From contig CAXGMD010000027.1 of NCBI GenBank assembly GCA_964010765.1, positions 1-37,362 of the forward strand: a DNA stretch of 37,362 bases. Direction: 5' to 3'. The position numbers and the translations under genes were made by a program. The DNA is from an uncultured bacterium. Its GTDB lineage: Bacteria; SAR324; NAC60-12. The notes under the pieces were generated by a model. That model was not told the origin of the DNA. It saw only the letters and a program-made list of their open reading frames with translations, and did no database searches. This document shows positions 2,034 through 33,877 of the stretch, piece after piece (the stretch's first letter is position 1; each line of letters starts with the position of its first letter).

Positions 2034-2236
2034 TTGTCCTCCCTGAAATAAAAAATTTCTAACCATTCGAATTAGTTCATATTGGTAATCTTCATAAAAT
2101 TTCATGGGCTAAAATATTAGCTTGGAATCACTAGGTCTCTTAACTCCCCCCCACTGTCCTCCGAGTCTATACGGATCGTTGACATACTTGGAAGCACAAT
2201 AACGTTGCATCCGTCAACCAATCCGAAAGAGGCATC

Positions 2237-2359
2237 ATGGAGTTTGGACAAAGAGATAACACCTACATCATCATTGCGCTCTGGACTGCCTGTACTGTTG
2301 GAGTCTGCGTTTCTCTGGCAGTATTGGAAACATTGCTGAAAGTGCCTGCTGTCCAGTAA
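2237..2359 (+). CDS. 40-aa single-TM microprotein MEFGQRDNTYIIIALWTACTVGVCVSLAVLETLLKVPAVQ
   Basis: AAAGAGG SD upstream of ATG; hydrophobic core; motif shared with the 29945 and 30204 ORFs. Confidence 0.6.
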   Translation: MEFGQRDNTYIIIALWTACTVGVCVSLAVLETLLKVPAVQ

Positions 2360-2549
2360 TAAATCTATCAAATTTGAATCCAGCTGGGGTCAAGCTGCCT
2401 CTGAGCACTACCTGCGATTGCAGGTTTGTCACGTAACAACAGTGCCAGCAGGTTTTTCATACCTGACACTAGTGGCCAATCAATAGTGCACTTGCCACGA
2501 TGCCCCAGCTGGTATTAGTACTATGGATTTGTGATGTCCAACTACACCC

Positions 2550-2819
2550 TCAGTTCTGTGTCGGAAAACTTTGCACCACTGGCGTGATTTCCCAATGACC
2601 CAGTTCGAGTACACTATCAAAAGCCTTATCAATGGCTTCCATCGAATCTGACTCAATGGCCATGTAGGCTGTGTGTTCCAGTCTGTTACTGTACATGGCG
2701 TGTAACTTCACACCTTTGTCAGTTAATTCCTGTATTGCAGAGTTATATTTCTTGAGTTTTTCCTGATTGCGAACATGGCAGGTCGAATAATCGTGTGTTT
2801 GTCCGATCATGAATAACAT
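2550..2819 (-). CDS. Small DUF3303/GYD-like protein (dimeric alpha+beta barrel type)
   Basis: GGGAG SD before ATG 2819 (MLFMIGQTH...); pattern H..Y...ESDS.EAI...EITPV. Confidence 0.6.
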   Translation of the reverse strand: MLFMIGQTHDYSTCHVRNQEKLKKYNSAIQELTDKGVKLHAMYSNRLEHTAYMAIESDSMEAIDKAFDSVLELGHWEITPVVQSFPTQN

Positions 2820-3182
2820 TAAATTCTCCCATTGATTGTGATTCAAAAAATACCAACCCACAGAAAAGCTAGTTGAACACCTTTGTCTGTGAGGCCGAAC
2901 TCAGCCCTGCTTCATAGAGTTCTTAGAATCGTCGTCACGTCATGTTTTTAAACTTTCATTGCCCCACTCAATGACCATAAATTTTAGCATTGTTTTGAAC
3001 TTAATGGAGCAACGTGTGTTGCATCTTAACCGAGCGGGGTATGCAGTAGTCGGAATTTGAGAGAATCAACTTGGGTGATGATTCACTTTGCTTGGAGATG
3101 CACTGTTGTTGAAGAAAATGTTCATAGATTTTTTTACATCAACAACAGATTGCGCCAACCTAGGTTTTTGTGCCAATTTGTG

Positions 3183-28463: not shown

Positions 28464-29660
28464 GTGGCTGAAGACTCAAAGAACAAAGCTACGTTTTACT
28501 GCTACTGGCTGATGAGCCTTTACGGTGTTTCAATCGTGATGATTGGGACTCTGGTTCCTGAGCTCTTGCAATACTTTGAAGTGTCGCTCAGTGAAATTGG
28601 ATTTCTGATGACAATTCAATGTTTCGGGGGGATTTTAGCTTTATTTCTAGGCAGTCGTTTTGCTGAAAAGGTGAAAAAGTCATTAATCATTCCAATTGCG
28701 TTTGGAGCCTTGGGGCTAGGCCTTTTAATTGTGGGTTACTCACCCTCTTTTATAGTCTTACAATCCGCTTTTTTCATTACGGGTTTTTTCATTCGCATTA
28801 CAGATATTTTTTTGAATGCTTTTGTGGGCCAAATACACCAGGAAGAGAGTGGAATTTATTTAAATCGCCTTCATATGTTTTTCAGTATTGGTGCGTTTAC
28901 CGGTCCATTCTATTCTGGGATGCTGATCAAACTAGATTTTCATTGGCAACAAATCTATTCAATCATTGGAATTCTTTTCGTTGTATCTGCATTGCTGGGA
29001 TGCTGGTTCATTTTGCCCATTGGGAAGATGCATCAGACACAGTCGCCAATGAACAGAGCTCCCTTAAATTTCTTAGAAATAATCCAAGATCCCAAGATTT
29101 GGCTTCTTGGTGCTACTCTCTTGTTCTACTCCTTCCATCAGCTATCCGTCACAGTTTGGTTGCCCTACTACATGGAGGACGCGTTAGGAGCCTCCAAGGA
29201 GATGGCGAATCTTGCTATTTCACTATTCTGGTTTGGTATCATTTTGGGGAGGTTTTTCGTTTCCATCATCGTGAAAAACCAGGATCCAGCGAGACTGCTT
29301 TCCTTCGGAGCTTTTGTAGGTGCGTTTTTGTTAATGGTTGGTCTTTATTCCAGAGACATATTCTTAACTACAAGTGCATATTTCATAGTTGGTTTGCTGA
29401 CAGGTGCGGTGATCCCGTTGGCATTTACAATCTGCTATAAAATTTTTCCAGAAGTGATCGCCCTGGCAACTACCTTTTTGTCAATTTTCCTCCTCTCTGG
29501 ACAAATGGTCGGACCCTGGCTATTGGGTATTAGTGCAGAGATATTCACAATTCATCATGCTATCTTTTTGACTGTCATCACCTTGTTTGGCTGTACGGTC
29601 GTTTGGAAGTTGGTGAGCCCTCCAATTGCTAGTATCCCCACCAAGCCTGCCTTGAGATGA
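28464..29660 (+). CDS. MFS transporter (TsgA/FucP-like)
   Basis: About 12 hydrophobic segments; LN.LH.FF.IGA..GP and W.G...GRF motifs. Confidence 0.85.
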   Translation: MAEDSKNKATFYCYWLMSLYGVSIVMIGTLVPELLQYFEVSLSEIGFLMTIQCFGGILALFLGSRFAEKVKKSLIIPIAFGALGLGLLIVGYSPSFIVLQSAFFITGFFIRITDIFLNAFVGQIHQEESGIYLNRLHMFFSIGAFTGPFYSGMLIKLDFHWQQIYSIIGILFVVSALLGCWFILPIGKMHQTQSPMNRAPLNFLEIIQDPKIWLLGATLLFYSFHQLSVTVWLPYYMEDALGASKEMANLAISLFWFGIILGRFFVSIIVKNQDPARLLSFGAFVGAFLLMVGLYSRDIFLTTSAYFIVGLLTGAVIPLAFTICYKIFPEVIALATTFLSIFLLSGQMVGPWLLGISAEIFTIHHAIFLTVITLFGCTVVWKLVSPPIASIPTKPALR

Positions 29661-29944
29661 AGAACTTCAGGCACTGTGCATGTGATTTGGAAAACCTTCC
29701 TAGAATATTCTCATCTCAGCCAATTTCTTATCTAGATCATTAAGTTCCTGATTCTACCTTTTAAAACTCACCTAACTGACCTGAAAAAAAGGATTACTTC
29801 CAACGCTAGCTCACCTCAACTCATGGCTCTCTCTGCATGGAAATCAAGTTGGTATGAATTTTTCAGCAGTATTTGACGATGATGGTGTTTTACTGAGAGA
29901 GTACACACTGATTTTGTTGATGATTCATAATTTCAGGAGGGAAT

Positions 29945-30055
29945 ATGAGCCCAAATAATGATGGAAGAAATGTTTTTTTATGGATGGTCTTTATGGGATT
30001 TATCTTTGTCTCCTTGGTTGTCCTAGAACGAGTGATGGAGGTTCCCCAAATTTGA
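29945..30055 (+). CDS. 36-aa single-TM microprotein MSPNNDGRNVFLWMVFMGFIFVSLVVLERVMEVPQI
   Basis: AGGAGG SD at 29935-29940; 19/32 identical to the adjacent 30204 ORF. Confidence 0.75.
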   Translation: MSPNNDGRNVFLWMVFMGFIFVSLVVLERVMEVPQI

Positions 30056-30203
30056 TGAGGATAGGGGTTGGAATGGCTATCTTGCAAAGCTTCGAGCATT
30101 AAGTTGATCTACAAAGCTTGACTTTCCTGAGAAAGTACACGCTTTCTTGATCACTGATCTTTGCCATTCTCAAGACCCATTCCTAAGCTTTGGGGACCCC
30201 AAT

Positions 30204-30338
30204 ATGAACGACGGTAGAAATTTTTTTCTTTGGCTGATTTTTATGGTCCTCATTTTTATCGCACTTGGTCTACTCGAAACCTTTCTTGAAGTTCCGGATA
30301 TTGGATATCGAGTTGTGCAAGGAGACATGATTTCCTGA
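30204..30338 (+). CDS. 44-aa single-TM microprotein MNDGRNFFLWLIFMVLIFIALGLLETFLEVPDIGYRVVQGDMIS
   Basis: Tandem paralog of the 29945 ORF; the alignment favours ATG 30204 over TTG 30147. Confidence 0.7.
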   Translation: MNDGRNFFLWLIFMVLIFIALGLLETFLEVPDIGYRVVQGDMIS

Positions 30339-30423
30339 CAATAGAAGCTTTCATCAAAAAGCGCTCATGAATCTTCTGCCAGGTCCGCTAGTCAATTTGT
30401 TTCATAAATTCTAGGAACCCAAC

Positions 30424-31071
30424 ATGATGAAAAACTCAGTCGTCAAAATAATGGTTCTTGGAACAGGTCTTTGCCTTTTGGCTATGCCTGTTTTGGGATT
30501 TAAAGAGGAAGATCTGGAAAAATTACGGCGGACCAATGAATGTATTCGTTGTGATTTGAGTGGTGCTGATTTGAGATCTGCGAAGCTGAGTCGGGCTAAT
30601 CTAAGATCATCGAATCTTTCAGGGGCGAATTTGCGAGGAGCTGCCCTAAATGAGGTGAATTTAAGCTTGGCAAATCTGAGTGAAGCAGAGTTGGTTGGCT
30701 CAAATCTACGGCGATCTAACCTTCATAAAGCAAATTTAAGTGCATCTGATTTGAGCGCTGCGGACTTGTCCGCGGCAGATTTCCGTGAAGTTGATCTCAC
30801 AGGAGCAAATCTACGTGGATCAGATTCACGAGCAACTGATTTTTGGAAGGCGAATTTCAAGGAGGCCAATATACGAAGAGCCGACATGCGTGAAGCAAAT
30901 CTTTTTGGAACGGATTTTAATCTAGCTGACATTCGTGGGGCAAATCTCAACTACGCGGATTTAGAAAATGCGAACTTGACTGGTGCGGATATGAGAGAAG
31001 CGCGAATGCTTGATGCTAGATTTTGTAATACTAAAATGCCGAACCAAGAGATGAATCATTCCGGGTGTTGA
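30424..31071 (+). CDS. Secreted pentapeptide-repeat protein
   Basis: Signal peptide, C..CDL cap, long A(D/N)LXX repeat run. Confidence 0.9.
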   Translation: MMKNSVVKIMVLGTGLCLLAMPVLGFKEEDLEKLRRTNECIRCDLSGADLRSAKLSRANLRSSNLSGANLRGAALNEVNLSLANLSEAELVGSNLRRSNLHKANLSASDLSAADLSAADFREVDLTGANLRGSDSRATDFWKANFKEANIRRADMREANLFGTDFNLADIRGANLNYADLENANLTGADMREARMLDARFCNTKMPNQEMNHSGC

Positions 31072-33040: not shown

Positions 33041-33877
33041 TCACTCGAAATATAAAAGGTTGCTCTGTTCATAAGAGACAAGATCGTAGAGTAAGCGATA
33101 ATAGGTGGTCGCTTCCGGATTCGCCCCAATTCCATACTCATGCAGAAACATCTCTTCCCAACCTTCCCCAAGATTCCAGTTCATACTCCAAGTTGCTGTA
33201 GCCAAATCCCACCAAACGTCTGCCACACCAAGTTCACCTAAGTCGACGAAACCTTGCAGCCGATTCTGATCAAAAAGGATATTTGGAACACAGTGGTCTC
33301 CATGACAGACGACCTCCTTGGTTGAAGAAGGTTGTTGTTCCTGCAAGAAGCTCAGAGCTTCGTCTAGGCTGAGATGTTGAAACTCAGGATGAAAATGCTT
33401 TTCGGGTTGAATTAATCCCAGTTGAGCTCGTTTGGAGACATGCTCCAGCGAAGTCTCGAGCCGGAAATCAAAGGGACAGTTGGAGACGGGGGCGTGATCG
33501 TGAAAATAGAGTAAGGCCTTCCCCAGAAGGGAAGCCAACAGCTCTGGGTTAGCTTTTAGATCGGGTTCTGTTCCGTTTGTTCCCCTTAATTCCTTCACTC
33601 AGTAACCACGCTGGATCAGCATCCAGATCAAAATCTATGATCATGGGAACTGGTAAAAAAGCTTTAGCCCATTGCAGACATTCCAATTCATCTGCAGTCC
33701 AAGGATAGCCCTTTGAACCATTTTCAGATATCTCGTCGCACCGTTAGGGTTGCTTAGACGATAAGTGCAAGCATGATCAAAAGGAGCCCAAGCTACCGTA
33801 GTGGTCCAATTTGATATAGAGTTTTCTAAGCTCTTTGGGATAGGAAAAGATGGGCTGAATGTGGATTGGTGTTGCAT
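33041..33877 (-). pseudogene. Aminoglycoside phosphotransferase APH(3')-family kinase, frameshifted
   Basis: YLK, HGD..VPNIL and DLGELGVAD.W.DLA motifs; the ADELECLQW...LPVP...WLLSEGIKG segment lies in another frame between ~33713 and ~33583. Confidence 0.8.

Follow-up and report, generated by a model that had tools for sequence, protein, structure and literature searches.

The window analyzed here is a 37,362-nucleotide (nt) contig (C27) of the draft genome (G000) of an uncultured bacterium of SAR324, a widespread marine lineage without cultured members. The assembly comprises 3,857,247 bases in 266 contigs, with a guanine-plus-cytosine (GC) content of 46% and 92% completeness. The window carries two short open reading frames (ORFs), A and B, arranged in tandem on the forward strand and encoding related peptides of 36 and 44 amino acids (aa). 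The following features were mapped at this locus, where A3 is an alignment of the A/B locus from the orthologues of four genomes:

29840..29869, + strand: near-invariant block GAAATCAAGTTGGTATGAATTTTTCAGCAG, about 100 nt 5' of ORF A; the best-kept non-coding stretch in A3 (4 genomes)
29873..29877, + strand: TTGAC box of the ORF A unit, at -72 from the ATG; present in genomes G000, G003 and G005, absent in G002; putative function
29893..29906, + strand: first copy of a 14-nt motif (14-mer), CTGAGAGAGTACAC; identical in G003, with 9-11 of the 14 positions kept in the two differing orthologues (manual count, A3)
29935..29940, + strand: Shine-Dalgarno sequence AGGAGG of ORF A, read from the sequence; kept in G003 and G005, GAGGAA in G002
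29945..30055, + strand: ORF A, predicted single-pass membrane peptide of 36 aa, MSPNNDGRNVFLWMVFMGFIFVSLVVLERVMEVPQI; from translation, BLASTP and hydrophobicity, with RNA-library contigs in 4/4 runs
30118..30122, + strand: TTGAC box of the ORF B unit, at -86 from the ATG; CTTGACTTT around the box is invariant in A3 (4 genomes)
30127..30140, + strand: second copy of the 14-mer, CTGAGAAAGTACAC; 8-12 of the 14 positions kept in orthologues (manual count, A3)
30204 (ATG)..30338, + strand: ORF B, paralogue of 44 aa, longer at the C-terminus by the 11 residues GYRVVQGDMIS; from translation and BLASTP, with RNA-library contigs in 4/4 runs

An earlier, sequence-only reading of this DNA described the two ORFs as a tandem pair of microproteins that share 19 of 32 residues while many codons differ synonymously. 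BLASTP reproduced this identity in a gap-free alignment; the 19 shared residues are encoded by the same codon in 10 cases and by a synonymous codon in 9, and 62 of the 96 aligned bases are identical. Both ORFs belong, as tandem duplicates, to a genuine family of protein-coding genes whose peptides have 33-44 residues.

Selection on the peptides and distribution of the family

The genome harbors nine members of this family, namely, three on C27 (ORFs A and B and a third copy at 2237-2359), a tandem pair on contig C76 (C76b/C76a), and single copies on C66, C249, C68 and C168. For groups of orthologues, synonymous and non-synonymous differences were counted with the Nei-Gojobori procedure and totaled over pairs; the pairs are not independent, yet the bias is large. 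The counts and the ratios of the non-synonymous to the synonymous proportion of differences (pN/pS) are as follows:

ORF A orthologues, 4 genomes: synonymous 35, non-synonymous 3 (all three the ATG/GTG start), pN/pS 0.022
C76a group, 8 loci: synonymous 246, non-synonymous 7, pN/pS 0.008
C76b group, 8 loci: synonymous 230, non-synonymous 37, pN/pS 0.049
C66 group, 5 sequences: synonymous 54.5, non-synonymous 24.5, pN/pS 0.148
C249 group, 5 sequences: synonymous 98.7, non-synonymous 47.3, pN/pS 0.149
2237-type group, 5 sequences: synonymous 128.8, non-synonymous 91.2, pN/pS 0.226

The ORF A peptide is identical in the four genomes save for the ATG/GTG start, and even isoleucine, valine and leucine are fixed inside orthologue groups at a synonymous divergence (pS) of 0.35-0.40. 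Purifying selection is also apparent in a group of relatives on low-GC, phage-like contigs considered below (pN/pS 0.235). ORF B is less constrained, with pN/pS values of 0.49 for three orthologues, 0.19 against G003, and 0.25 for five distinct B-type sequences. The highest of these is due to the G005 copy with its W-to-S and E-to-Q replacements and GTG start; in G002, the ORF B orthologue is frame-broken, so that this gene is decayed in two genomes. Overall, pN/pS amounts to 0.008-0.25 in intact orthologue groups, bearing out the earlier suggestion that selection acts on the peptide. These genes are coding and evolve under strong purifying selection, and they almost certainly represent a real, translated family.

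The genus of this bacterium was represented by 9 genomes (including G000, G001, G002, G003, G005 and G008), which, together with 79 others, made up a phylum set of 88; many of these genomes are incomplete, so that a family is reported here as "not found" and not as "absent". A search with the family profile detected 1-11 copies in each of the nine genus genomes, with 5-11 copies in eight of these, and no member was found in the 55 other genomes of the order that were searched. With a broader profile, the family was found in 9 of the 88 phylum genomes, all in the genus, and in 0 of the 79 outside it. The genus genomes contain 61 matches, of which 56 are open frames and 5 have in-frame stops; some copies lack a start codon. 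One genome, G001 (94% complete), contains just one or two copies (L078; G001:C6:19028-19120), which are divergent and without the C-terminal LEVP cap; an example is ...MESGKNLALWTLATVTMMISLHFLEAMLLPQVDILL. Three subfamilies can be told apart by sequence (MNDGRN..., MQ/EFGQ.DNT... and METFNEDR...), and in a tree built from 33 columns, ORF A groups with the second of these.

A profile search of 1.84 billion protein cluster representatives produced 40 matches at E ≤0.001. Apart from a repeat protein of 920 aa, which is unrelated, the other 39 are relatives and end in ...LE..LEVPxI. The longer representatives look like upstream extensions introduced by ORF calling or like read-through past the family stop, and there was no fusion to another family among the matched cluster representatives. 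In a word-indexed protein search, ORF B was matched by 13 clusters, one of them named, as "hypothetical protein". The window ORFs and the 25 family members of alignment A4 gave no match to Pfam or NCBIfam at curated cut-offs. Two Pfam families scoring below the cut-off, Babuvirus_MP (15 bits against a cut-off of 27; 4/25 members, best E 8e-4; residues 5-30 of 44) and CAAD (15.9 bits against 30.7; 3/25 members, best E 3e-3; residues 4-39 of 40), were rejected; both matches lie mainly over the hydrophobic helix. PADLOC matched 0/25 members, the best PHROG match had E 0.074, to families of no assigned function and to no lysis family, and among PDB sequences there was nothing below E 0.79. The named rows in the ESM Atlas (YncL, YniD-like) reached best scores of 0.80-0.84, which is the noise level, and were not treated as leads. 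Full-text literature searches pairing SAR324 with small proteins or with type I toxins gave no paper.

Thus, the description of the pair in the sequence-only reading as an undescribed microprotein family holds: none of the family libraries contains a match, the relatives are unnamed or "hypothetical protein", and the ORFs are conserved in relatives within the genus. What that reading could not see is that the family is multi-copy, that among the genomes searched it occurs in a single genus, and that phage-like contigs carry it as well. It is an undescribed family within a known kind, the small single-pass bacterial membrane peptides, and is unusual in its autonomous duplicated units, its acidic C-terminal motif, and its copies on phage contigs. 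Small membrane proteins are routinely missed by annotation, and, for a microprotein, this family is unusually well supported, by near-absolute selection on 33 residues, several paralogue groups, presence in RNA libraries, and phage-borne relatives. The peptide is a compact, synthesizable test object and, possibly, a marker linking marine phages to a SAR324 host.

Duplicated units, upstream regions and RNA-library contigs

The sequence-only reading also noted a duplicated motif, here the 14-mer CTGAGARAGTACAC, upstream of each ORF. Both copies are exact (29893-29906 and 30127-30140) and are the only exact sites on either strand of the whole 3,857,247-base assembly. With up to 2 mismatches, the window contains 2 matches, both of them the known sites (shuffle mean 0.47; 2 or more matches in 8/100 shuffles). 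What did not stand is the status of a stand-alone motif: in a global alignment, the 110 nt 5' of ORF A and ORF B are homologous throughout, including AAGTTG, TTGAC, the 14-mer, CACTGAT and ATTC.TAA, and across the orthologous loci of three other genomes, 8-12 of the 14 positions are kept (manual count, A3). Copy 1 is homologous to the stretch directly 3' of the TTGAC box in other units. Given the homology of the whole leaders, the 14-mer is the best-retained segment of a unit of gene and leader that was duplicated in tandem, and lies 3' of the TTGAC box.

The layout of the unit is common across the genus. In C76a-type units, TTGAC lies at -85 to -89, a distance similar to that in ORF B, and TTGACATTACTGACTGATAGGTA of the C76a type corresponds to TTGACTTTCCTGAGAAAGTACAC of ORF B. 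These units are also preceded by a GAAATCA...ATTTTT block resembling 29840-29869, which is, possibly, a regulatory or promoter-proximal element. A Shine-Dalgarno-like purine run is present in most units, most clearly as AGGAGG/AGGAGT in the A, C76a and MET/MNT types, and is weak or missing in the B-type, C66-type and a few other units. A promoter scan of 29600-30500 identified one sigma-70-like site, TACACA-18-CATAAT, ending 14 nt before an ATG, where 1.6 would be expected, and a scan of the same interval detected no terminator-like site at the A/B locus. Compared by eye, the A/B upstream boxes do not fit the consensus sequences for sigma-54, sigma-32, LexA or NtcA, from which we draw no conclusion. 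Rfam matched nothing in the window at gathering thresholds, and the sole sub-threshold match, mir-338 (E 0.98), is attributable to chance. The boxes and blocks upstream of A and B may be promoter elements. Each copy is a duplicated unit in which a TTGAC-containing upstream region is followed by a leader of about 50-85 nt, bearing a Shine-Dalgarno sequence, and then by the ORF. Separate regulation of the two ORFs, as proposed in the sequence-only reading, is plausible because each has its own homologous upstream region with a TTGAC box; on the other hand, RNA contigs also bridge to the neighboring genes.

Some loci of the C76 tandem pair show further features. Between C76b and C76a (C76, between 7349 and 7755; L002), there is a stem of 11 base pairs (bp), GAACCATAACT / AGTTGTGGTTC, which is kept in 8 loci with a variable loop; no T run follows, and hence, this is no classical terminator. 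In some genomes, a degenerate third family copy of about 31 aa, with ...SLEVLKTLL..., is located 5' of the pair (L049:1300-1392, - strand; L046:404-496, + strand), which suggests arrays that gain and lose copies.

The third copy in the window, which the sequence-only reading had listed as a relative, is a real member of the family. The pairwise match is weak (10/25 identical, E 0.66), and the link is established by intermediate paralogues and by the family profile (E 3e-20). G008 encodes the same peptide in a gene that differs at 5 nucleotides (manual count). The unit was mapped with the help of alignments of the four subfamily-2 units of the same genome (A2) and of 14 units of subfamilies 2 and 3 from across the genus (A6):

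2142..2236, + strand: leader of the third copy, with a C-rich CCCCCCACTGTCCTCCGAG box, TTGACATACTTGGAAGCACAA, and the Shine-Dalgarno region AAAGAGGCA; common to the four units of A2 and the 14 units of A6
2237..2359, + strand: third family member, subfamily 2, 40 aa, MEFGQRDNTYIIIALWTACTVGVCVSLAVLETLLKVPAVQ; from pairwise comparison, paralogue links and the family profile
2360..2440, + strand: conserved 3' flank of the subfamily-2 unit, AATCCAGCTGGGGTCAAGC plus a CCTGC...GCAGG hairpin; alignments A2 and A5

No T run follows the hairpin, and we rejected it as an intrinsic terminator on sequence grounds. Conservation upstream of the subfamily 2/3 units (window 2142-2236; L008, L007, L006; the A6 loci) extends over as much as about 170 nt and includes an invariant C-rich box, TCCCCCC..CCTCCGAG. 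The Shine-Dalgarno GAGG, located about 75 nt further downstream, is a potential pairing partner for the CCUC of this box; some of these units have TTGATT-N15-CCCA(C/T)C further upstream. A reverse-strand ORF running through the C-rich box 5' of 2237 is open in a paralogue, but on inspection lacks a synonymous bias and was read as non-coding. A DUF3303 gene is convergent to two subfamily-2 copies, within a longer duplicated segment (window 2550-2861, - strand; L036:1551-1853, - strand; L036:1930-2511, + strand).

Seventeen metatranscriptome runs from salt marsh and estuary contain 46-73% of the sampled words of 29700-30500. In all four runs examined, from four studies, both ORFs are covered by contigs, for example, X1 (29583-30066 and 30037-30357) and X8 (29895-30450). 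These contigs carry no strand, ends or level, and DNA carry-over is possible. Recurrent contig ends at 30035/30037 and 30357, seen in three runs, were considered as transcript ends and dismissed because neighboring contigs overlap by about 30 nt, as expected of assembly-graph breaks. Contig depth was 8-19 over the two ORFs and 2-7.5 over the MFS gene in all four runs; the runs were selected with this very stretch and such depths are a poor basis for ranking genes, and the difference was not used as evidence.

Proposed membrane peptide function and its alternatives

All three peptides encoded in the window (36, 44 and 40 aa) have a single hydrophobic window, with a mean Kyte-Doolittle value of 2.36-2.66 over the best 19 residues. 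The general plan includes a short polar N-terminus, M-N-D-G-R/K-N, one predicted transmembrane helix, and a mostly acidic conserved cap, L-E-T/S-x-L-E-V-P-x-I; the peptides are net acidic. Arginine or lysine at position 5 together with the acidic cap suggests an N-in, C-out topology. In an analysis of position entropy over 67 distinct family sequences, W10, L24 and E25 are invariant, N6, L21, L28, V30 and P31 have an entropy of at most 0.7 bits, and M14 and I17 are below most other helix positions, whereas positions 12, 13, 15, 16, 20, 22 and 27 vary freely. The low-entropy residues W10, M14, I17, L21, L24 and L28 follow a 4-3-4-3-4 spacing, which corresponds to one face of a helix. This conserved face is consistent with, and no proof of, binding to a partner.

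The fixed helix face, the invariant E25 with the LEVP cap, and the lack of interchange among isoleucine, valine and leucine at pS 0.35-0.40 lead us to favor, tentatively and at somewhat less than even confidence, a peptide of the inner membrane that binds a partner or self-assembles in a defined manner through specific helix-helix contact. Such a peptide would insert into the inner membrane and function via the face formed by W10, M14, I17, L21, L24 and L28, together with the E25/LEVP cap. It would bind specifically, either modulating a membrane protein in this way or forming a defined oligomer with further copies of itself, and would not cause unspecific membrane damage; the partner would be a protein other than the product of the neighboring MFS or pentapeptide gene. 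If the peptide is a modulator, its partner would point to a genus-specific membrane physiology. Co-folding of four ORF A copies with A4 scored 0.09, compared to a mark of 0.42, and counts neither for nor against self-assembly.

There are known models for a modulator of this kind: AcrZ, KdpF, MgtS, MgrB, CydX and SgrT are likewise single-pass peptides of 30-50 residues, and in these, a conserved helix face binds a larger membrane protein. None of them is related in sequence to the present family, and they are single-copy genes, mostly encoded with or near their partner (AcrZ, KdpF, MgtS and CydX are usually linked to it), whereas this family has 1-11 copies with unrelated neighbors. Several observations weigh against a partner-binding or self-assembling peptide. 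The genes adjoining the copies differ, and no partner emerged; 5-11 copies, often in tandem and with decaying members, are found in 8 of the 9 genus genomes, a pattern more typical, by analogy, of toxin or conflict genes. Furthermore, the RNA-library contigs are no proof of transcription, and we infer topology, translation and membrane insertion from the sequence.

The multi-copy pattern makes type I toxin-antitoxin systems, also named as candidates in the sequence-only reading, a possible, if unlikely, source of these peptides. Under this explanation, they would be maintained in many chromosomal copies and would depolarize the membrane in stress, persistence or abortive responses to phages, and an antisense RNA encoded in cis or in trans would restrain their translation. 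The known toxins Hok/Gef, Ldr/Fst, TisB, Ibs, ShoB, ZorO and AapA consist of 30-50 residues with one hydrophobic helix; they occur as several chromosomal copies, often in tandem, each with a promoter region and leader, and show genus-level distribution with occasional decayed copies. Fst, in particular, is also 33 aa long and has an acidic tail. The present family resembles them in size (below 60 aa) and single hydrophobic helix, in occurring 1-11 times per genome, partly as tandem pairs (C27 A/B, C76 b/a) and in some loci with a degenerate third copy, in the promoter-like region and leader of each unit, in its narrow taxonomic range, and in its decayed members (5 of 61 matches with in-frame stops, ORF B in G005 and G002, lost start codons). 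In subfamilies 2 and 3, the invariant CCUC about 75 nt 5' of the Shine-Dalgarno GAGG could pair with it, and in 8 of 15 units of these subfamilies, a reverse-strand GCTTGAC box resembling those on the sense strand lies about 34 nt past the stop, in the conserved 3' flank (manual count), a lead for a convergent RNA only.

Other observations speak against a type I toxin. There is no homology to a described toxin family among the window ORFs and the 25 A4 members (Pfam/NCBIfam), and no antisense signal was found at the loci in RNA data that consist of contigs without strand. The mRNAs fold no better than shuffled sequences (z +1.7 for A and +0.6 for B), and RNAalifold revealed no conserved structure (-6 kcal/mol for 11 subfamily-2 units, and -0.9 kcal/mol). 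Covariation is negligible, with a single two-sided change in 1/20 pairs in the 11-unit set and 0/4 in the 14-unit set; over 205 nt upstream of the 14 subfamily 2/3 units, the sole predicted helix is CCUC:GAGG, which is invariant in 14/14, so that covariation is impossible there. The A/B locus also lacks a terminator-like site in the interval scanned. On the peptide side, the molecules are acidic, with an invariant acidic LE..LEVP cap, a conserved helix face, and nearly every residue fixed within orthologue groups, which favors specific contact over generic membrane damage. Finally, the copies on phage-like contigs lie in tightly packed same-strand ORF runs and are translationally coupled to their neighbors, which leaves no room for an antitoxin RNA gene.

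These phage-like copies bear on another explanation, which we consider doubtful, namely, that the family serves in phage-host conflict or host takeover, moving between SAR324 chromosomes and marine phages and acting at the inner membrane during infection. Examples of such roles are a block of superinfection or DNA entry, the timing of lysis, and the tuning of a host membrane machine. In metagenome contigs, 86 relatives were confirmed by a pattern-seeded scan, and 80 loci were retained for analysis; GC content is 30-35% in 11 of the 80 and 37-47% in the rest. A scan of IMG/VR identified four viral contigs (L163-L166) of 31-74 kilobases (kb), identical over 900 nt, that carry a 33-aa member:

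L163:3001-3102, same strand as a run of small ORFs: 33-aa family member on a viral contig, with overlapping stop and start codons; IMG/VR scan

In L163:2692-3102, the 33-aa member is preceded by two other small ORFs, one of 74 aa, in which two hydrophobic segments can be discerned by eye, and a hydrophobic one of 28 aa, noted directly in the sequence, and the surroundings include a nucleotide kinase and, 2 kb away, a tail-fibre match. Among the low-GC loci, L126-L129 carry the same peptide at matching offsets and apparently represent one contig type; the one annotated, L127, has its genes in the same order as the viral contigs (nucleotide kinase, phrog_818). Of L131, L132 and L156, which have the same family gene in the case of L132, annotation covered L131 and L156: their ORFs are densely packed on one strand, some match PHROGs alone, and purM and an adenylosuccinate synthetase are among them. 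These three are phage-like, their viral nature being unproven. The purM, PurS-like and adenylosuccinate synthetase genes (L156:5486-8094, L131:3759-6016; top PHROG name for the last, 2-aminooxy adenylosuccinate synthetase) are possible auxiliary genes of nucleotide metabolism. The 33-column tree, in which the NDGRN subfamily is unresolved, unites five of the six distinct low-GC sequences of that subfamily in a single group (support 91/86), and, as noted above, the low-GC sequences are under purifying selection.

Other evidence speaks against this explanation. The L163 sequence lacks a DNA match to any of the 9 genus genomes, and the search for a named phage relative gave none (2% coverage). 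The chromosomal copies lie outside recognizable prophage contexts, save for a phage-integrase-family gene after the C168 copy, no PADLOC or PHROG family was matched, and the tree gives no direction of transfer. Within 3-4 kb of the copies on L163, L127, L131 and L156, there is no PHROG or Pfam lysis family among the annotated ORFs (at least 80 aa, plus the 74-aa ORF), and no lysin match beside the phage copies. The L156 adenylosuccinate synthetase gene, 67-73% identical to purA of the genus, was tried as a clue to the host and proved uninformative. The phage-like copies resemble holins, antiholins and superinfection-exclusion peptides in that phages encode them, in their small size and membrane character, and in their clustering with further ORFs of this type. 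They differ in that 33 residues with one helix are fewer than holin classes are known to have, and in that the family has neither a PHROG lysis match nor the endolysin-adjacent cassette position of holins, antiholins and spanins.

A broader version of the phage connection, which we regard as improbable, is a SAR324 membrane microprotein system shared by host and phage, in which diversified autonomous chromosomal copies and phage versions would act on the same inner-membrane target through the W...L..LE...LEVP face and decide the outcome of infection (exclusion, membrane energization or lysis timing). The closest parallel is with the high-light-inducible proteins (HLIPs, hli genes), small host-like membrane proteins common to cyanobacteria and cyanophages: in both cases, a small one-helix membrane family is multi-copy in the host, and marine phages carry copies. 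The present family differs in having no Chloroa_b-bind match (Pfam, E up to 10; for the 25 members, E up to 1), no match to a photosystem or HLIP-type family, and no E-x-x-N-G-R pigment-binding motif; its NDGRN precedes the helix. If such a shared system exists, it would parallel the hli case outside photosynthesis and would provide initial access to the interplay of phage and host in a lineage that is abundant but uncultured. Likewise, if the family turns out to consist of toxins or infection-control peptides, those classes would gain a new sequence family.

Neighboring genes

The A/B pair is flanked by ordinary chromosomal genes, namely, those for dihydroxy-acid dehydratase, an MFS protein (94% identical to a protein from an uncultured metagenome-assembled genome and 87% to one from a SAR324 cluster bacterium), a pentapeptide-repeat protein with an N-terminal hydrophobic, signal-like segment (by eye), thymidine kinase, and MOSC. 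The other six copies in this genome adjoin unrelated genes, including bestrophin, dehydrogenase/kinase, DUF3303, integrase, amidohydrolase and genes without assigned function, and across all nine copies, no conserved neighborhood or partner linkage was found. The sequence-only reading had considered the peptides as modulators of the flanking MFS and pentapeptide genes; such a link is not supported because the other copies have different neighbors and the genome holds about 30 pentapeptide-repeat genes.

It is highly improbable that these ORFs are leader peptides, upstream ORFs in which the act of translation, and not the peptide, would regulate the gene that follows (the pentapeptide-repeat gene in the case of ORF B): the ORF B stop does lie 86 nt before this same-strand gene, and the X8 RNA contig (29895-30450) spans both ORFs and the start of the gene, but selection on amino acids extends along the whole peptide and across paralogues with differing, in some cases convergent, downstream genes, and a transmembrane helix plus C-terminal motif kept in 67 distinct sequences is unusual for leader peptides.

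The pentapeptide-repeat genes of G000 (102 matched repeat stretches; manual count) represent a large expansion for a 3.9-Mb genome and include, for example, genes on C51, C57, C19 and C66 as well as C27:30424-31071, with several clustered on the same contigs. Two of the nine family copies lie within about 0.6 kb of such a gene and a third within 3.3 kb, a proximity that was not counted given the number and clustering of these genes. Further along the window, an APH-family ORF of 185 aa (33041-33598, - strand) aligns to no more than positions 78-234 of a Pfam profile of 239 positions and may be an N-terminally truncated phosphotransferase gene or one with a mis-set start.

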